Below, one piece after another: positions 25,124 through 38,401 of a stretch of 63,512 bases of DNA. Below the pieces are notes generated by a model. It was not told where the DNA came from. It saw nothing but the letters and a program-made list of their open reading frames with translations, and ran no database searches. Made by a program: the position numbers and the translations under genes. Numbering within the stretch: the first letter of the stretch is position 1; each line of letters begins with the position of its first letter. The DNA comes from a virus, in IMG/VR virus record IMGVR_UViG_3300024432_001127, positions 1 through 63,512 of that record. The stretch is one strand, 5' to 3'.

Positions 25124-27525
25124 TTTTCGTAGGTGATAGTGACCATATCGTCTTCGTTACCGCTCCCGCTTTTTTCTGCCCAGGATTTCGCTCGTTTGCA
25201 CCATTCTATCCCTATCAACGGAACGTAAGATCGGAAAGACTCAACACTCTCGCGGACTGCTTCGGCAACTGCGTCAACTAAATCAGGCCGAGTAACACAG
25301 GCGACTTCATCGTGTACGTTGAGGGGTGCTACAAGAAACTCGTAAACGCCCGCCGGCTGCAACTCCCAAATTTTACATTGCAGCGCTTTGGTAATCTCAG
25401 CGCCCGGACTCTGAATCTCATGGTTCGCGGCGGCTCGCATGTTGCTCGCCTGTAAAGCGAAGGACGCTCCGTAAAGTGCTGATTGAGCTGCACCGCCTGC
25501 AGTTTGTACGCGATCTCGACGGCATACTTTGACGCCCTTACCGACCTCTTTCCAGTGGGGCGGTGGCTTCTGAGCCAGCCTAAAGAGCGTTCTGCAAATG
25601 CGGTTCTCAAGAGTGAAGTATCGGCGAAATTTTAACATGGTCTCGGCGTAGTCAGCAGGCTCTTTCCAGATAACCTGCGTACCGAGGCCGCCCGGTTGCG
25701 TCATTGAACAAAATGAATTACTCACCCGCTGCCTCCAGCGGCCTACACCCTTGTACTTCTTGCCAAATGATTCGATTGCGGCAACAGCATCCGCTTCCTT
25801 AACACCGAGCTTATTGATCAGTGTCATGTGATTGCCTCCATACAAGATAGACCCGAAAAATCCTTGCTTGCCTTTGGTATACAAGTCGTTTTCGGTGCCA
25901 TCTGTCGCACGAATCTCGTCGTAAGAGTGTCCAGGGAATAACGCCATTCCGAATAGCGCATGGATTTTCCGACCAGCCTTCAATTCGGCCCGAAGGTCCA
26001 CATCGTTACAAACAGCATCGGCGATCGTGACCTCGAATGCCGAGAAATCGCCAATACTAAGAACGTAGCCTTCCCACGCCAGAGGAAACTTCCCTCTGAC
26101 CTCCTTAGTGTGCTTGATGCCTTGGGCATTCAGACCGTCACCGCCACTCATACGCGATGAGAGAGCACCAATGACATTGAAGGACGCATGGAATTTGCCG
26201 GCCCGAAGCAGTTTGTTGTAGAGTTCAACTTCTTTCCCGGCGATCTTGACCGCCAAAATCTCTTTGGCGCGAACAGCAGCAGGGTGAATTCCGGCATCCA
26301 CAGTTCCGGTACCGAGACAACGCATACAATTCGGGTCAATTTCGATTAAGCAGCACGTACAAGGTTCGGACTCTTCTATCTCCCAAGTGCCAATGGCCTC
26401 GATATTGACTTTCTTCGTGGAGTCTTGAAGGATAATAGACTCCATGTCATCCATTGTAGCTGTTATGTATGCCCGTACTTCACTCGGCTTGTTAGTATTG
26501 ACCGGGGAGTTATCAATAATGGCTCTTGCTTGTTTAAGCAGTTCTCGCAAGCCCGGCTTGTCAATTGTAAACCCATGCCAACGAACCGCCGCGACCATAC
26601 AAGTTAGGATGGAGTCGTTGTCATTCGGCGTCGGATACCCGAAATGCTTATCGAGGTCTCGTAAGTAAACCACGTCATCCGTGGCATATATGCGTGCATC
26701 AGCATTCGACGCCCAGTGACAAATGGTTTCACGAATTACGCCAGGCCAGGCGTGACCTACGGGCTTCAACTTGCCGTCTTTTCCTTTTGCTTCTACGATC
26801 CAATTCTTATCGGGATTGGACATTGCCAGAGCGGTTGGAGCAAATCCCAATTCTTTTGGTCGGACGGCCGGTTCGACATCTTTGAAATGGAATTTGGGTT
26901 TTCGCTTTAATAGATACTCAGCCAGGTACTTCAGACCACCGGCCGGATTGAATTTCAGAACGACATCTTTGAAATGGTCATCTATGTCTCCGTACCGATC
27001 ATGTCGGTCGAAGACTTGCCACTTCGGAGCATTTACGTCATGTGATTTAGCGAAATAGATGTTGTCAAATTGAACTCGTGCTTCAAGTTCGTCCGCAAGT
27101 GCATCGGCCATAACTGTTGGTACGCGATTGATGCGGACGTTATTGCGGCTCATCAACGATTGCATCGGGCCCTTGCGGCTATGAAGCAGCAAATCAAGAG
27201 CGCCGGCCGGCTTTAAGCAGGGCCCGTCTTGCCCTTTGGGCTCAAGCAGGGCAATCTCTTCAATATGCTCCTCGGGGACCCAATTTGGGTCGCAGAGTAG
27301 AAAGATGGTATACAGCTTGCACAAATGAAAGAAATCGAAAACTAGATTGAACGCCACGATGGTGTGTTCGAGCATCCATTCGATCAGTCTAAGTGTCTCG
27401 TGAACCGGGCGCTTCCAAATATCGTAGAGAATGATCGGTCCATCTTCAACAGCATACTGAAGAAGAACCGGTAGCCCAAATAGGCCACACGTCTCTGAAT
27501 CAAGGTATAATTTTGGCGCACTCAT
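25120..27525 (-). CDS. Family A DNA polymerase (PolI-like) with 3'-5' exonuclease domain
   Basis: Exo I YLDSETCGL. Polymerase motif A DFSAFEV, motif B KGKQGFFGSILYGG and motif C HDEV. Confidence 0.85.
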   Translation of the reverse strand: MSAPKLYLDSETCGLFGLPVLLQYAVEDGPIILYDIWKRPVHETLRLIEWMLEHTIVAFNLVFDFFHLCKLYTIFLLCDPNWVPEEHIEEIALLEPKGQDGPCLKPAGALDLLLHSRKGPMQSLMSRNNVRINRVPTVMADALADELEARVQFDNIYFAKSHDVNAPKWQVFDRHDRYGDIDDHFKDVVLKFNPAGGLKYLAEYLLKRKPKFHFKDVEPAVRPKELGFAPTALAMSNPDKNWIVEAKGKDGKLKPVGHAWPGVIRETICHWASNADARIYATDDVVYLRDLDKHFGYPTPNDNDSILTCMVAAVRWHGFTIDKPGLRELLKQARAIIDNSPVNTNKPSEVRAYITATMDDMESIILQDSTKKVNIEAIGTWEIEESEPCTCCLIEIDPNCMRCLGTGTVDAGIHPAAVRAKEILAVKIAGKEVELYNKLLRAGKFHASFNVIGALSSRMSGGDGLNAQGIKHTKEVRGKFPLAWEGYVLSIGDFSAFEVTIADAVCNDVDLRAELKAGRKIHALFGMALFPGHSYDEIRATDGTENDLYTKGKQGFFGSILYGGNHMTLINKLGVKEADAVAAIESFGKKYKGVGRWRQRVSNSFCSMTQPGGLGTQVIWKEPADYAETMLKFRRYFTLENRICRTLFRLAQKPPPHWKEVGKGVKVCRRDRVQTAGGAAQSALYGASFALQASNMRAAANHEIQSPGAEITKALQCKIWELQPAGVYEFLVAPLNVHDEVACVTRPDLVDAVAEAVRESVESFRSYVPLIGIEWCKRAKSWAEKSGSGNEDDMVTITYEK

Positions 27526-29320: not shown

Positions 29321-30388
29321 TCAGACTTCTATTCCTGTGAAATTCGGTTTAGATAATATGTTATCCCCATCCCAATCATAAACACCAACATCACCATGCG
29401 GGCTGATCAACACAAAGCTACAAATATTTTCAGCCCAGGTACCGGTATTGTAAACCTGTAACGGCAATGTTTGACGATACAATTGACCCGCGCGGTGCGT
29501 GTGTCCTGAAACAAGAACATCGTATTTGTCCAAATACTCGATCAGACGGGAGTTCATAACTTTCGCCCGATTAGGTTTACGAAGAATCCAGCGAACAAAA
29601 CTCAATATCCGCTCTATGCGGCCCAGCGATCTGTTTTCAATCGTCTGGTATTTGTTCACAAGTGGCCCGCCGTTGCGATCCTCTCTGAGACCGGTGTAGA
29701 TGGCTGAAATTCGGCCTAGACCCGGTGTGTCATTGGCGCAGTAGCGATCTACCTCGTGGCCGTGAATGAAGTGAAATTGCTTACCGCCGATAGTTTCAGT
29801 GTGACTTGTCACCATGTTTCTGAAAAATGGGTGTGTTAATTTCAAGTGTCCACGAAAGTTCACTAAATCAGCATCATGGTTACCCAAGATGTAAATAGCC
29901 CCCATCGAAGCGAGTCGATTCAAAAGCCAAGGGCGGGCTGTAAGAACTCGACTCACATTGCTTTGCCACAGTTCAAAGAGATCGCCCGCAATGATAAGGC
30001 GGCCATTCTGTCTCTCAACGTAATTAAGAAAAGACGTGAAATCTTGCATCCGACGCCCTTCGGACATGAAAACAAAATTGTCTCTTACACCTCGATCACC
30101 GAGATGCAGATCGGATACAACAAAAATCGGCTGGGAAATCTTTTGCTTAGATCGCACCGGCTGCGGTTGAACCTGATGGACAGGTTCAGTAAACTGATCG
30201 TCGAGCGACTCAAAAGACTCAACAGACTCAACAGACTCGATAGGTGGGGCAATTGAAATTTCTGGCATGGTAGGTGTGACCTCTGGGTAAAACCATTCGT
30301 TAGCACAACACTGAAGCCGATACAAAACATCATTAGGATCAGTATCTTCTACAACGTTTTTGAACAAAATATTAACTTGGATGTCCAT
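29321..30388 (-). CDS. Calcineurin-like metallophosphoesterase
   Basis: VSDLHLGD, GDLFE, GNHD and GHTH motifs. The N-terminal region carries the tandem ESVESVESFES repeat. Confidence 0.7.
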   Translation of the reverse strand: MDIQVNILFKNVVEDTDPNDVLYRLQCCANEWFYPEVTPTMPEISIAPPIESVESVESFESLDDQFTEPVHQVQPQPVRSKQKISQPIFVVSDLHLGDRGVRDNFVFMSEGRRMQDFTSFLNYVERQNGRLIIAGDLFELWQSNVSRVLTARPWLLNRLASMGAIYILGNHDADLVNFRGHLKLTHPFFRNMVTSHTETIGGKQFHFIHGHEVDRYCANDTPGLGRISAIYTGLREDRNGGPLVNKYQTIENRSLGRIERILSFVRWILRKPNRAKVMNSRLIEYLDKYDVLVSGHTHRAGQLYRQTLPLQVYNTGTWAENICSFVLISPHGDVGVYDWDGDNILSKPNFTGIEV

Positions 30389-33718: not shown

Positions 33719-33791
33719 AGCCGACGGTAGGAATCGAACCCACAACAAGCGCATTACAGATGCGCGGCTCTACCAATTGAGCTACACCGGC
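33719..33791 (-). tRNA. tRNA with a non-canonical anticodon loop (UGU/Thr if a 7-nt loop is assumed; C at position 33)
   Basis: Folds as GCCGGTG-TA-GCTC-AATTGGTA-GAGC-C-GCGCA-TCTGTAA-TGCGC-TTGTT-GTGGG-TTCGATT-CCTAC-CGTCGGC-T. Confidence 0.6.
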
Positions 33792-33794
33792 AAG

Positions 33795-33868
33795 TGGGCA
33801 ATGCGGGACTCGAACCTGCGACATCTGCCTTGTAAGGGCAGCGCTCTAACCAACTGAGCTAATTGCCC
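33795..33868 (-). tRNA. tRNA-Val (anticodon TAC)
   Basis: Folds as GGGCAAT-TA-GCTC-AGTTGGTTA-GAGC-G-CTGCC-CTTACAA-GGCAG-ATGTC-GCAGG-TTCGAGT-CCCGC-ATTGCCC-A, with a perfect acceptor stem. Confidence 0.8.
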
Positions 33869-33872
33869 TAAG

Positions 33873-33948
33873 TAGCGGGCATGGGATTTGAACCCACGAC
33901 CTCCTGGTTATGAGCCAGGCGAGCTAAACCAGACTGCTCTAACCCGCA
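33873..33948 (-). tRNA. tRNA-Met (anticodon CAT) with an apparent 1:72 mismatch (initiator-like or Ile2-type cannot be excluded)
   Basis: Folds as TGCGGGT-TA-GAGC-AGTCTGGTTTA-GCTC-G-CCTGG-CTCATAA-CCAGG-AGGTC-GTGGG-TTCAAAT-CCCAT-GCCCGCT-A. Confidence 0.7.
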
Positions 33949-34725: not shown

Positions 34726-35319
34726 TTAAAAGTTTATTTTCAGTTTTTTCTGAAAAACATGGTAGTGATCCAACATATCGTGGCCCTTCCGTTGCATAAG
34801 CCGCTCAACAACCTCTTCATCTGAGAACGGTCGCCACTCCCCCGTCAATTGGAAAGCGGTATCAGGCGACACATCCATCGACCGGCGCTCCGGCCAAATT
34901 GCATCCAGACATGCTTCACGCTGATTGTGACAATGCCCGTATAAATGAAGCGAACCACGATGACTCGACGGCCAGTGCGCATGTGGATAGTGCGACAGGA
35001 ACGCCAAGGCTCCACACACCTTCTTCACCATGCGTGTCAAATACATGGCCCCGCCAAACACATTTCGACACTTGGCTTCACTATCATGGTTGCCAACAAT
35101 CAAAGTCACATGGCGACATCGAATCCGTTGTCTCCAATAACCCGGCCGCTTCCACGCAAAGTCTCCGAGAATGAATAAGCGATCTGCACGATCCACCAGT
35201 CTATTGATATTACCCAATATCAACTCGTTCCACTCGTCTAAAGTGAATGGACGGGTCACCTGCGGTTCAAAGAACTTCGCGTGGTCAAAATGACAATCCG
35301 CAGTGAAAAATGTTTTCAT
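34726..35319 (-). CDS. Calcineurin-like metallophosphoesterase
   Basis: DCHFDH, GDF, GNHD and GHCH motifs. The start is at MKTFFTADCHF. Confidence 0.65.
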   Translation of the reverse strand: MKTFFTADCHFDHAKFFEPQVTRPFTLDEWNELILGNINRLVDRADRLFILGDFAWKRPGYWRQRIRCRHVTLIVGNHDSEAKCRNVFGGAMYLTRMVKKVCGALAFLSHYPHAHWPSSHRGSLHLYGHCHNQREACLDAIWPERRSMDVSPDTAFQLTGEWRPFSDEEVVERLMQRKGHDMLDHYHVFQKKLKINF

Positions 35320-35330
35320 AGCTCCAAGAC

Positions 35331-35957
35331 TTATAGTGAAAAGACTCCTACAAAGGCTTCGGCATTCGGAGTCCAATACTCGTTTAGCCGGGGAATACTA
35401 AGTTTCTCGATGCGCAAACCAGTGAGTCCTTTAGACAACAATTCCGGTGTAAGCACGTGCGGATGGCATTTGTCGGCTGGAATGTTAATCCATTCAAAGA
35501 TACGAAGCCGACCGCACCTATTGAGATGATTTTTTGCTTCGACAAGAACCTTGTTTGGATCGGCAACATGTTGAAGCACATTACATATCCAAACCTCATC
35601 GGCCGGCCACACATCAACCGTCAATAAATCCTCGCCCGCACAACGTACAAAGTCGATGCCATACTGACAATACCGGCGAAGTACAGCTTTTGGCCAGGCG
35701 ATAGGATCAACAACAGTGAGACGCGAGGCGTGGTGACACCGAAGTGTCATTGACACAGGACCCCCGCCTATATCAATCACGGACTTACCTTGCATGTCAA
35801 ACTCACCATTGTCGCCGTAATCAGCAATCAATTGCATTTCACGACTGTACATTTCTTGTTTGACAAACTCCTGCCATGTCGATAAGTTGAGACAGTCACC
35901 CCAGAATTTAGCTTCGTGTTTCTGGGCGTCGATCCAAATCTGAGAATCAGTCGTCAT
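35331..35957 (-). CDS. Class I SAM-dependent methyltransferase
   Basis: Motif I VIDIGGGPV. The start was set at MTTDSQIW. The longer ORF extension is a Thr-rich frame-mirror of the acidic repeat gene. Confidence 0.55.
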   Translation of the reverse strand: MTTDSQIWIDAQKHEAKFWGDCLNLSTWQEFVKQEMYSREMQLIADYGDNGEFDMQGKSVIDIGGGPVSMTLRCHHASRLTVVDPIAWPKAVLRRYCQYGIDFVRCAGEDLLTVDVWPADEVWICNVLQHVADPNKVLVEAKNHLNRCGRLRIFEWINIPADKCHPHVLTPELLSKGLTGLRIEKLSIPRLNEYWTPNAEAFVGVFSL

Positions 35958-36186
35958 CGTCCTCGTCGTCCTCGTGATTGTAATCAAAGTCGTCCTCGTC
36001 GAGATCATCGAGATCATCGAAATCATCATCGAAATCATCATCGAAATCGCCGTCAAAATCGCCGTCAAAATCGTCGTCAAAATCGTCGTCGTCGTCGTCG
36101 ATTTTGTCGTCGAAGTCGTCGTCGTGAAAGTCGTCAACAAAGTCGTTGTCGAAGTCGTCAAGAGTAGGGTAACTGCTTTCGGGCAT
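35947..36186 (-). CDS. Extremely acidic D/F-repeat protein (candidate DNA-mimic)
   Basis: MPESSYPTLDDFDNDFVDDFHDDDFDDKIDDDDDDFDDDFDGDFDGDFDDDFDDDFDDLDDLDEDDFDYNHEDDEDDDD, encoded by GTCGTC/GATTTC tandem repeats. Confidence 0.45.
   Translation of the reverse strand: MPESSYPTLDDFDNDFVDDFHDDDFDDKIDDDDDDFDDDFDGDFDGDFDDDFDDDFDDLDDLDEDDFDYNHEDDEDDDD
35985..36130. repeat. Low-complexity tandem repeat tract (GAC/GAT-TTC units)
   Basis: Direct reading gives cgtcctcgtcgagatcatcgagatcatcgaaatcatcatcgaaatc...gtcgtcgtcgtcg. Confidence 0.8.
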
Positions 36187-36223
36187 TTGTCTCTCCCTTT
36201 CCCTTTGGAACAAGTTAAATCAG

Positions 36224-36568
36224 TTACGGTTGAATGATCGGCGAAGGTGGTTCAGTTGGCGGTGAAGGCGGTTCAGTTGGCGGTGGCTGCGGCGCGCCTG
36301 CCGTAGGCGGTGCCACTCGATGAATACGAGACTTAATCGAGTACCACTGCAACAACATCTTGAAAACATCGTCGGCCGATAGACCCTCAAAGCAAGCCAA
36401 TGGAAACTGAAGGCTATTACCTGCAAAGAAATGGACATGGTACTGGACAATAAGACCATTAGGCAAAGTGACCTTAAGAGTTGTATCGATCATCGGACTG
36501 ATGGTCTCTTCCACCTCTTGCATCTGACCATCATACGGCCCACCAAGAAAAAGAATTCGTGACGCCAT
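36224..36568 (-). CDS. Hypothetical protein with C-terminal Pro-rich repeat (PPTEPPSP x2)
   Basis: 114-aa ORF. The 24-nt tandem duplication at 36241-36290 encodes the repeat. Confidence 0.4.
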   Translation of the reverse strand: MASRILFLGGPYDGQMQEVEETISPMIDTTLKVTLPNGLIVQYHVHFFAGNSLQFPLACFEGLSADDVFKMLLQWYSIKSRIHRVAPPTAGAPQPPPTEPPSPPTEPPSPIIQP

Positions 36569-36569
36569 G

Positions 36570-37178
36570 TTAATTTCCCTCTCTTATGAGGCATTGTTGA
36601 CATTGTATGTAAGTCACTTCCGTGTCACTCAATTCCGAACCAGGGGCCAAACATTTCATAGTCACTTGGATACAACCACAGTTTTTTGAACGATGCCCTT
36701 GCGGAAATCGCAGTAAGCATTTCGGCCACAACGGAGTAAATCGCCACGAATTCTCGGAATCACGCTGATAGCCCCTAATATCGCGTGGCGGTTCCCATGT
36801 GCCTTCCTCATGTTCATATACGATACTACCATCCGACTCCATTGTAAAGCGACGATCTTTTCCAGGTCGATGACGTGGAAGTGATGTGCGGATAGCTTGC
36901 AAATCGGGTCGTTCAATTGAATGATTAACAACCCAATTCGGGAGACCCTTCAACGAAACAAGTGGATGCTGCGGTGTTTCACTAAAATAACCTGTCTCAG
37001 TTTGACCGTCCTCAGTTTTCATAGTCATCAGACGCCCGTGCTCCTCAGCCGCCACCTGACACGATACACACTCTTCGTGAGTACAATCATCTCGCTTCAA
37101 GAAACAATGTAATCTCACAGACTCCAGTCTTCGAGTAAAGCGTCGGTGTATACACTTGGGAAGATTCATTAACAGCAA
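36570..37178 (-). CDS. Cys-rich hypothetical protein, member 1 of a 3-gene paralogue family (EPPRDIxGYQRD motif)
   Basis: DGSIVYEHEEGTWEPPRDIRGYQRDSENSWRFTPLWPKC...C.C resembles the ORFs at 49690-50028 and 50028-50453. Confidence 0.5.
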   Translation of the reverse strand: MLLMNLPKCIHRRFTRRLESVRLHCFLKRDDCTHEECVSCQVAAEEHGRLMTMKTEDGQTETGYFSETPQHPLVSLKGLPNWVVNHSIERPDLQAIRTSLPRHRPGKDRRFTMESDGSIVYEHEEGTWEPPRDIRGYQRDSENSWRFTPLWPKCLLRFPQGHRSKNCGCIQVTMKCLAPGSELSDTEVTYIQCQQCLIREGN

Positions 37179-38401
37179 GTTTCGCCTTCTGGAGTTGGTT
37201 CCGGATAAGCTCGGGTAAGTTGAACCTCAAGCACTTGATACGAGTGACAACCACCGACAAATTCGCAAGGATCACCAGGACCATAAGCAGCGCACCAGTA
37301 ATAAGGAACGCCTCCACAAGACGGCATACCAGTTATATACGCTTGGCCACTTTGCGTATATCCACCGCCTATCGCATAAGTCCAATCCCCATGCCACTCT
37401 CCACCCCCCTCGTAGTAAATATGACTTTTTATTTGAACAGACCAAGCAGCACGGCATCGGTGAAGAGAAGTAGGAATATGCCCTCCTAAACAATCCGGAG
37501 GCAGTTCATCACAAGTCTTGTTAGTTATCGGTTCCGTCCCAGGTAACGCCGTGTAGAAAAGTTGACAAAGGAGTGGAGCAATAGCATTTGCCATCAACCG
37601 ACTATTCTCCGCCTTCTCATCAGCTAAAACTGCGGCGTCATCAACTTCCACCTGCTTGGCATCGCGTTCCACAATCTTAGCGTCCAATTCCACTTGCTTG
37701 GCATCAACTTCATCTTGCTTAGCGTCTACAGCCGCTTGTGCTGCTTCGCAATTATTTGGCGGCGGTTTTGCACACTCAATATCCCGAATTTCTTCAAGTG
37801 CCAACAACTCAGCTTCAAGGTCCTCCAACTCATCTTCTAGCTCTTCGACTTCCTCGATAAGATTACAAAGCTCTGTTGTGTAATAAGTCCAATTTTGCGT
37901 AGCAATTTTAGCCCAGCCGCCCTCTATTTCCACGGCTCTCCTCGTAGCAGCAGAACACCCGCTACCCCCTGTTGGATTTGACTGACACGCTTCGACAGTG
38001 TACGAACCTATATAAGTCACAACAAGTCCAAGGGCATTATCACAATCGGGCATACACTCCTCGTGACAACACTCCTCTTCATCGCCCCAGCCGCCCCAAT
38101 CTCGATCAAGAGCCGCCTCAATCTCGATAATGATACTATCCCTCCAGATAGTTAAATCTTCGGACCAAGAAAAAGCACACATCTCGTCTATGGCGTCTCG
38201 AAGATTCTCAACATCTTGCTTTGTCCAAACATGATCTTCTTCGACCTCATCAATCGAACTCAATGCTTCGCAACTTGTATCGTCTGGTGGGTCCGCGCGC
38301 TCATCATTAACTTTGCGAATCACAGCATTCCATGCCTGATGGAGGTCTTCAGGCGTATCGCGTTTGTAGATGTTACCGCTTGGATTGGGATTCGCCATCA
38401 T
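37169..38401 (-). CDS. Hypothetical coiled-coil, Cys-rich protein
   Basis: 410 aa. The central region has heptad-like DAKQ(D/V)E(V/L)D repeats. The N- and C-terminal thirds are Cys-rich. Confidence 0.45.
   Translation of the reverse strand: MMANPNPSGNIYKRDTPEDLHQAWNAVIRKVNDERADPPDDTSCEALSSIDEVEEDHVWTKQDVENLRDAIDEMCAFSWSEDLTIWRDSIIIEIEAALDRDWGGWGDEEECCHEECMPDCDNALGLVVTYIGSYTVEACQSNPTGGSGCSAATRRAVEIEGGWAKIATQNWTYYTTELCNLIEEVEELEDELEDLEAELLALEEIRDIECAKPPPNNCEAAQAAVDAKQDEVDAKQVELDAKIVERDAKQVEVDDAAVLADEKAENSRLMANAIAPLLCQLFYTALPGTEPITNKTCDELPPDCLGGHIPTSLHRCRAAWSVQIKSHIYYEGGGEWHGDWTYAIGGGYTQSGQAYITGMPSCGGVPYYWCAAYGPGDPCEFVGGCHSYQVLEVQLTRAYPEPTPEGETCC

Follow-up and report, generated by a model that had tools for sequence, protein, structure and literature searches.

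A free-standing hyper-acidic mini-protein of an uncultured tailed phage: coding frame, repeat-driven evolution and candidate mimicry of nucleic acid

Introduction

Whether a tract that encodes little besides aspartate and phenylalanine is a gene at all, and what its product could do for a phage, are the questions raised by positions 35947-36186 of a viral DNA of 63,512 nucleotides (nt) (IMG/VR record IMGVR_UViG_3300024432_001127, positions 1 to 63,512; this whole stretch is termed the window below). A preliminary description of the locus had placed there an extremely acidic mini-protein of Asp/Phe repeats, encoded by a GAC/GAT tandem tract, and had proposed it as a DNA mimic or anti-defence factor comparable to Ocr and ArdA; Thr-rich and Arg-rich open reading frames (ORFs) run through the same tract, and the coding frame was considered to be in need of confirmation. 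The comparison of orthologues reported here supports a genuine translated phage gene in the Asp/Phe frame, whose product may act as a flexible polyanion in imitation of nucleic acid.

Composition and repeats of the acidic gene

As delimited by its ORF, composition and orthologues, the acidic gene occupies positions 35947-36186 on the minus strand (start codon ATG, 36186-36184; stop codon TGA, 35949-35947; 79 codons), which are exactly the coordinates of the preliminary description. Its product of 79 amino acids (aa), MPESSYPTLDDFDNDFVDDFHDDDFDDKIDDDDDDFDDDFDGDFDGDFDDDFDDDFDDLDDLDEDDFDYNHEDDEDDDD, comprises 44 Asp (56%), four Glu and 11 Phe residues (14%) together with one Lys and no Arg, i.e. 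60.8% Asp plus Glu, a net charge of -47 and approximately 50 carboxylates over 79 residues. The ORF consists of the acidic tract and a leader of approximately nine residues, and nothing else; its C-terminal end reads ...DDEDDDD. Asp contributes only 6.5% of the residues across 20 long ORFs of the same window, which excludes a chance origin of this composition.

The description of the coding tract as GAC/GAT repeats was also correct: the Asp codons comprise 28 GAC and 16 GAT, with tandem repeats of 9, 12 and 21 nt among them. A degenerate 12-nt array (36017-36159) was reported by Tandem Repeats Finder to contain a perfect 3 x 12-nt repeat (36013-36048, no strand assigned; ATCATCGAAATC on the plus strand), which corresponds to DDDF units. 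One bulky hydrophobic residue occurs per three to five positions, Phe in the window and Trp, Tyr or Leu in relatives, and the hydrophobic residues of the window protein are spaced more evenly than in shuffled sequences (P=0.0006).

The choice of Asp codons is itself unusual, with GAC accounting for 64% of them in the acidic ORF versus 35% in the rest of the phage (binomial P=2e-4). Of seven relatives checked, six likewise have more GAC than GAT in their acidic ORF (contigs L001, L014, L054 and L056-L058; the exception is L059), and the flanking genes of these relatives contain too few Asp codons for a clear baseline. Translation efficiency, avoidance of the out-of-frame ATGs that arise from GAT-G, and repeat history are possible reasons for this excess.

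Coding frame

The alternative low-complexity frames had been described correctly, and both appear in the ORF list: a Thr-rich extension of the frame of the downstream methyltransferase gene, started by TTG (35331-36161; 276 aa), and an Arg-rich ORF on the plus strand (35916-36167; 83 aa); a Val/Ile-rich ORF (35974-36237) is a further such frame. The methyltransferase is predicted to be a class-I S-adenosylmethionine-dependent enzyme of 208 aa (35331-35957, minus strand; Pfam Methyltransf_11, E=1.2e-5; phrog_3603, a family of unknown function, E=1.5e-31).

Several lines of evidence, not all of them independent, point to the Asp/Phe frame. Codon-usage log-odds over the six frames were uninformative, and comparative substitution patterns were used in their place. 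Among seven close variants, the variable sites are distributed over codon positions 1, 2 and 3 as 7, 7 and 40, and every alignment gap is a multiple of three. Synonymous changes were seen in Pro, Gln, Tyr and Thr codons of the non-repetitive N-terminus of the acidic ORF, and the exchanges at hydrophobic positions (Phe, Trp, Tyr and Leu) conserve residue properties in the Asp/Phe frame alone. A Shine-Dalgarno sequence read from the DNA (GGGAGAG, 36191-36197, minus strand) lies 4 nt upstream of the acidic ATG; a GGAG-type site approximately 4-9 nt 5' of the start was present in each of the nine variants examined (9/9), and the ATG is likewise conserved. An identical acidic protein is recorded on a public contig of the European Nucleotide Archive (ENA), for which the gene caller used the Asp/Phe frame, and the public gene calls for five related contigs are also in this frame, with the methyltransferase called as a separate gene of approximately 208 aa.

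The tract would not be a separate gene if the methyltransferase carried it as a Thr-rich extension at its N-terminus, or if it were repeat DNA of a hypervariable, non-coding kind, and in keeping with this the Thr frame is open back to the TTG at 36161, it is open in relatives too, and the length of the tract varies. We regard this explanation as hardly credible. An open Thr frame is uninformative, since GAY repeats (Y, C or T) cannot yield stop codons in the +1 frame; the match to phrog_3603 begins at residue 13 of the 208-aa protein, the start of which (MTTD or MKTD) is conserved among relatives, and methyltransferase homologues of 28-43% identity occur with no such tract upstream. The acidic ORF, conversely, is present without the methyltransferase in L022, L023 and L049, and its own start and ribosome-binding site, its pattern of synonymous or conservative substitutions and its in-frame insertions and deletions are features of the Asp frame.

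With the orthologues, the 7/7/40 distribution, the in-frame indels and the Shine-Dalgarno sequence, the coding frame is settled in favour of Asp/Phe, and the Thr-rich and Arg-rich frames are, on the same data, by-products of the GAY repeats. Neither outcome that had been named beforehand as fatal to the idea of an acidic protein was encountered: the Thr-rich extension is not a conserved product, and the tract is not hypervariable non-coding DNA, its length varying always in frame while start and ribosome-binding site are kept.

Orthologues and evolution

Relatives were located via the methyltransferase, the 114-aa gene described below, a phosphoesterase, and a DNA pattern for FDDDFDDDF. From this uncultured phage lineage they provided 16 distinct positional orthologues with lengths of 57-99 aa; the flanking proteins of these relatives show 54-85% identity. 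The acidic gene was also found in two more distant relatives, L022 and L023, recognised by a phosphoesterase in common with the window (64%) and by a protein of 67 aa (43%, E=2e-11).

The orthologues contain 57-76% acidic residues and, through Phe, Trp, Tyr and Leu swaps, 11-16% aromatics. Basic residues number at most one per orthologue, except in L021 (up to five, located in its extra N-terminal segment); L021 is the only one with a non-acidic N-terminal extension, of approximately 37 aa. All variants seen terminate with Asp, Glu or Ser. A C-proximal motif, [FL][DE]Y[ND][HY]ED, is common to the window (FDYNHEDD), L049, L054, L056, L057 and L059, which indicates true homology beyond mere composition.

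Between the window and L054, the acidic proteins are 58% identical with 20 gap columns, whereas the flanking genes are 82% and 85% identical without any gap. The acidic gene, as this alignment indicates, is evolving faster than its neighbours through repeat slippage, and the length changes among relatives are attributed to slippage in the tandem repeats. The gene is also kept where an extra gene is located upstream of it (L001, L057-L059). This retention, together with that in the relatives without the methyltransferase, indicates that its function is not tied to the methyltransferase. A comparable stand-alone acidic ORF was found in L030, an apparently unrelated viral contig; stand-alone ORFs of this type would suggest convergent origins.

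Homology searches and predicted disorder

For the acidic protein, no Pfam family at E<=0.01, no PHROG match and no chain of the Protein Data Bank (PDB) at E<=10 were found, and phmmer returned zero matches among 5.8 billion proteins though the identical protein is recorded in the public assembly index; these null results are due to the low complexity of the sequence. An AlphaFold2 model from the single sequence has a mean predicted local distance difference test (pLDDT) score of 54 and a predicted template modelling (pTM) score of 0.13, with neither helices nor strands. A composition of 61% Asp/Glu allows no hydrophobic core, in line with the predicted disorder.

Matches by blastn in cultured phages (PLot gp60, Juicer gp36 and a protein of a Xanthomonas jumbo phage) were rejected as Asp/Glu tracts inside larger unrelated proteins. 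PLot gp60 itself (Mycobacterium phage; L011, 2314-3213) is a 299-aa 'hypothetical protein' with a long Asp/Glu tract and an end, ...GEDDPF, that is like the tail of an SSB (a protein that binds single-stranded DNA, ssDNA); it may be an unannotated ssDNA-binding protein. A separate viral family on the IMG/VR contigs L027, L031, L034 and L039 comprises proteins of approximately 90-105 aa in which a C-terminal tail, FFTPDYLEDFEDDFDDDFDDDFFEDE, comes after a transmembrane helix; this tail is membrane-anchored, acidic/aromatic and similar in composition to the acidic protein of the window.

Comparison with known systems

In SPO1 Gp44, residues 56-122 contain 57% Asp/Glu and no basic residues, are disordered, bind the beta and beta' subunits of RNA polymerase and have been proposed as an ssDNA mimic (PMC8208478). 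The acidic protein has the corresponding features, i.e. at least 50% Asp/Glu, virtually no basic residues and predicted disorder, and shares with the Gp44 domain its phage origin, an acidic content of approximately 57-61% and internal repeats. Gp44 differs in being a protein of 237 aa with three domains, the acidic region of which is anchored by a folded DNA-binding N-terminal domain, whereas the acidic protein stands alone, has no flanking folded N-terminal and C-terminal domains, is dominated by Asp and carries Phe, Trp, Tyr or Leu at regular intervals; homology between the two is beyond the reach of low-complexity sequence.

The peptide at the C-terminus of SSB from E. coli, DFDDDIPF, binds the ssDNA site of the protein's own oligonucleotide/oligosaccharide-binding (OB) fold in direct competition with ssDNA (PMC3936761), and the acidic tail of T7 gp2.5 competes likewise (PMC3936761; Marintcheva et al. 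2008 as cited in PMC10359462). These tails, as the acidic protein, are Asp-rich disordered peptides with embedded Phe, and the exact string DFDDD recurs in the window protein and in L014, L021, L023 and L030 (it is absent from L001, L017 and L049). They differ in being short (8-26 residues), tethered to an OB domain and hydrophobic at the end (Phe in E. coli SSB), whereas the acidic protein is a separate polypeptide of 57-99 aa with many repeats, and neither the window protein nor any variant seen has a C-terminal hydrophobic residue after the acidic run.

As with the acidic protein, Ocr (T7 gp0.3) and ArdA are small, acidic and encoded by a mobile element, with expression from an early or middle gene region; they act through charge mimicry of DNA (PMC3439906, PMC7261183). 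They are folded dimers with carboxylates in a B-DNA-like pattern, whereas the acidic protein has roughly double their acidic content. It shows no sequence or profile similarity to the Ocr family and no ArdA profile or fold (Pfam, PHROG and PDB; no predicted fold), and the compact helical fold of Ocr, with its carboxylates in the pattern of bent B-DNA, is missing from the AlphaFold2 model, which as a single-sequence prediction is weak evidence on this point. Of the original comparison with Ocr and ArdA, the idea of nucleic-acid mimicry is in keeping with the composition, predicted disorder and fast repeat-driven evolution; membership in these families does not hold, given the missing profile or PDB match, the lack of a predicted fold and the approximately two-fold acidity. 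The word 'disordered' does not occur in the main text of the EVADES preprint, in which 11 DNA-mimic anti-defence proteins are described, and no description of a free-standing hyper-acidic disordered phage inhibitor was found in the literature.

Proposed function

Any functional reading has to accommodate the gene with its frame and conservation, its composition and predicted disorder, and its rapid evolution by insertion and deletion, as documented above. From the comparisons, we infer that in function the protein comes closest to the Gp44 acidic domain and to the acidic tails found on ssDNA-binding proteins. Our preferred reading, which we hold to be quite possible though short of probable, is that of a free-standing flexible polyanion mimicking nucleic acid, probably ssDNA. 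Carboxylates would take the place of phosphates and aromatic side chains that of bases, and the chain would occupy a cationic/aromatic nucleic-acid-binding surface of one or more host proteins, possibly of a phage protein, in competition with DNA. As targets, OB-fold or recombination proteins come into consideration, as do a nuclease or defence protein, RNA polymerase, or a nucleoid protein. In SSB and T7 gp2.5 the tails perform such mimicry in cis, and for the SPO1 Gp44 acidic domain the same has been proposed with respect to RNA polymerase. Slippage in the repeats would permit fast change of length and repeat type with no loss of charge, hydrophobic punctuation or reading frame. As with the mimicry and the class of target, any anti-defence role is drawn from analogy; it would be plausible and would fit the rapid evolution.

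Several points weigh against polyanionic mimicry. No binding partner is indicated by experiment or computation. Leu stands in place of most aromatics in L058, L059 and L049, which weakens the idea that the aromatics act as specific mimics of bases, and the even spacing of the hydrophobic residues is due in part to tandem duplication at the DNA level. Single-sequence AlphaFold models would look poor for many real folds, and HMMER-type searches are blind to homologues of such low complexity, hence the lack of functional annotation. Finally, long Asp/Glu runs near the N-terminus abort translation in E. coli (10.1101/2021.02.02.429294), which makes the yield of full-length protein uncertain.

The DFDDD units also raise another explanation, that the protein is a decoy or adaptor of the SSB-tail interactome, multivalently sequestering the host enzymes that dock on SSB tails (exonucleases and RecQ/RecO/PriA-type proteins) or recruiting them to the phage replisome. 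We consider this improbable. The exact units of the window protein are those of the acidic core in the C-peptide that E. coli SSB carries (PMC3936761), the gene lies among genes for an exonuclease, helicase, primase, DNA polymerase and ligase, and no SSB was recognised among approximately 40 window ORFs scanned with PHROGs. Against this, the variants without exact DFDDD have already been named, and not one variant ends in a hydrophobic or aromatic residue. The carboxylate of the terminal Pro-Phe is the key contact in complexes of SSB with its partners. The neighbouring 114-aa protein, as a potential tail-less OB-fold partner, has no significant PDB match, and no frameshift route leads from this upstream ORF into the acidic frame, which has a TGA after the TAA of the upstream gene. 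A 'split SSB', in which the 114-aa protein with its linker-like, Pro-rich tail would be an OB fold lacking a tip and the acidic ORF would supply this tip separately, is not supported, on these same two grounds, and is further countered by the gene that lies between the two in L001 and L057-L059.

The high charge may also be read more simply, with the polyanion as a charge chaperone or counter-ion sink that binds and neutralises a highly basic partner, be it a phage protein (DNA-binding or internal), polyamines or Mg2+/Ca2+, instead of vying with DNA for a host protein. Charge, carboxylate content and predicted disorder would suit this role, and the freedom of length and repeat type to vary with charge kept suits non-specific electrostatic binding. 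The conserved neighbours, i.e. the Pro-rich 114-aa protein and the methyltransferase, include no conspicuously basic protein, and the maintained aromatics (or Leu) and the C-proximal Tyr-containing motif suggest that more than charge is selected; we think this role no likelier than that of an SSB-tail decoy.

Polyanionic mimicry might also be generalised. It is conceivable, if on balance unlikely, that the protein represents a new class of phage proteins that are free-standing, disordered throughout and acidic/hydrophobic and that evolve by their repeats; as multivalent mimics of ssDNA or SSB tails these would jam host OB-fold, recombination/repair or nucleic-acid-sensing defence proteins, with slippage as an inherent means to retune the mimic rapidly.

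Downstream overlap and the methyltransferase

The start codon of the methyltransferase gene is located within the last codons of the acidic ORF, the two genes sharing an 11-nt overlap (ATGACGACTGA, 35947-35957, minus strand). Equivalent start/stop overlaps of 11-17 nt are found in the methyltransferase-bearing relatives L001, L014, L017 and L021 (ATGAAGACTGA in L001 and L017), and translation of the methyltransferase is possibly coupled to that of the acidic ORF. The downstream gene varies among relatives, being either the methyltransferase or an ORF of 109, 135 or 84 aa: L022 and L023 carry a different gene there, and in L049 and L030 the next gene is unrelated and lies 27-47 nt downstream with no overlap. 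An obligatory functional link to the methyltransferase was rejected, as methyltransferase homologues occur without the acidic ORF (those of 28-43% identity) and the reverse case is known (L022, L023 and L049).

This arrangement could be that of a translation-attenuating leader, in which intrinsic ribosome destabilisation within an ORF rich in Asp, Glu and Pro determines how many ribosomes arrive at its stop codon and by this sets the expression of the overlapping downstream gene, e.g. in response to Mg2+, and the peptide itself is irrelevant. In E. coli, N-termini rich in these residues cause translation to be aborted, with MgtL (MEPDPT) as an example, and the effect is counteracted by bulky residues (10.1101/2021.02.02.429294). 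The acidic ORF resembles such leaders in the residues that immediately follow its first Met (window, MPE...; L001 group and L049, MPEND...; L058, MPQDDD) and in its overlap with the downstream gene where this is the methyltransferase. It differs from them in that it is three to five times longer (57-99 codons, compared with fewer than 20 needed by such leaders), is conserved as a protein, including the C-proximal motif, and has neither a fixed downstream gene nor constant coupling to it. The destabilisation-countering bulky residues are kept throughout, as expected if the full-length product is needed, and we judge a leader function distinctly improbable, more so than a charge chaperone.

The adjacent methyltransferase lacks the [DNS]PP[YFW] motif, and several relatives have no methyltransferase beside the acidic gene. 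A generic methyltransferase without this motif, and missing in several relatives, provides no restriction-modification context.

Genome context

The window is part of a tailed-phage genome, in which nearly all genes are on the minus strand. Its genes encode a tape-measure protein, a DNA polymerase with a separate exonuclease subunit, a helicase, a primase, an exonuclease, DNA and RNA ligases, a ribonucleotide reductase, two ParB-like proteins, a sigma-like factor and an HNH endonuclease. Around the acidic gene extends a long operon, on the minus strand, of genes for replication and nucleotide metabolism: neither a sigma-70 promoter nor an intrinsic terminator beyond chance expectation was found flanking the acidic gene, which indicates a position internal to the operon. 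For inference of the host no cultured close relative was found, the best tblastn matches of the DNA polymerase being Thermus phages at 28% identity.

The acidic gene usually has as its upstream neighbour a conserved gene for a 114-aa protein (36224-36568, minus strand; 29 homologues), which is syntenic with the acidic gene in L001, L049 and L054-L059. Its AlphaFold2 model (pLDDT 73) comprises a five-strand-plus-helix domain followed by a Pro-rich disordered tail, and gave no significant fold match in the PDB, OB folds included (best E=0.17). The family consists of at least 29 uncharacterised proteins with a conserved beta-rich domain (LFLGGPxDGQ...) and the Pro-rich tail (APPTAAGPEPPPTEPP...IIxP), and a 21-nt tandem repeat lies inside the gene at 36239-36285.

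The extra gene between the 114-aa and acidic genes of some relatives, absent from the window, encodes approximately 100 aa with the pattern …AWVQ..ECVQVD…GSAGALAATERHL..M..LVF (L001, 3380-3760; L057, 4349-4654; L058, 4345-4636; L059, 4356-4649); in L058 it appears split into two ORFs. Further upstream of the acidic gene, positions 37169-38401 (minus strand) encode a 410-aa Cys-rich protein with an acidic coiled-coil-like repeat (VDAKQDEVDAKQVELDAKIVERDAKQVEVD) and no family match, which is conserved in L010, L049, L056, L057 and L059.

Just downstream of the acidic gene block, three phage tRNA genes were found (Thr-TGT, Val-TAC and Met-CAT; 33719-33948, minus strand). An RNA ligase, an ATP-dependent DNA ligase, a 595-aa phrog_850 'RNA-binding protein' and two metallophosphoesterases are also encoded, all on the minus strand (this set occupies 7667-8734, 14015-15196, 15506-17293, 29321-30388 and 34726-35376). 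Together with the tRNAs, these proteins may serve in RNA/tRNA repair, or counter anticodon-nuclease defences. The HNH endonuclease gene (24566-25123, minus strand) is located directly downstream of the DNA polymerase gene (25120-27525, minus strand), with a 4-nt overlap.

Significance

The acidic protein, as the alignments indicate, is the member of a conserved family of its own in an uncultured phage lineage. To our knowledge, nearly all phage DNA mimics are folded proteins with a recognisable structure; a polyanion that is disordered, free-standing and conserved would add to mimicry a class invisible to profile-based and structure-based screens. The gene also poses a puzzle of translation, i.e. 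how a bacterial ribosome completes a message of 79 codons with 61% Asp/Glu from codon 10 on; the bulky residues at their regular positions may contribute to the solution. If its target is found, the acidic protein could serve as a broad competitor for nucleic-acid-binding proteins.

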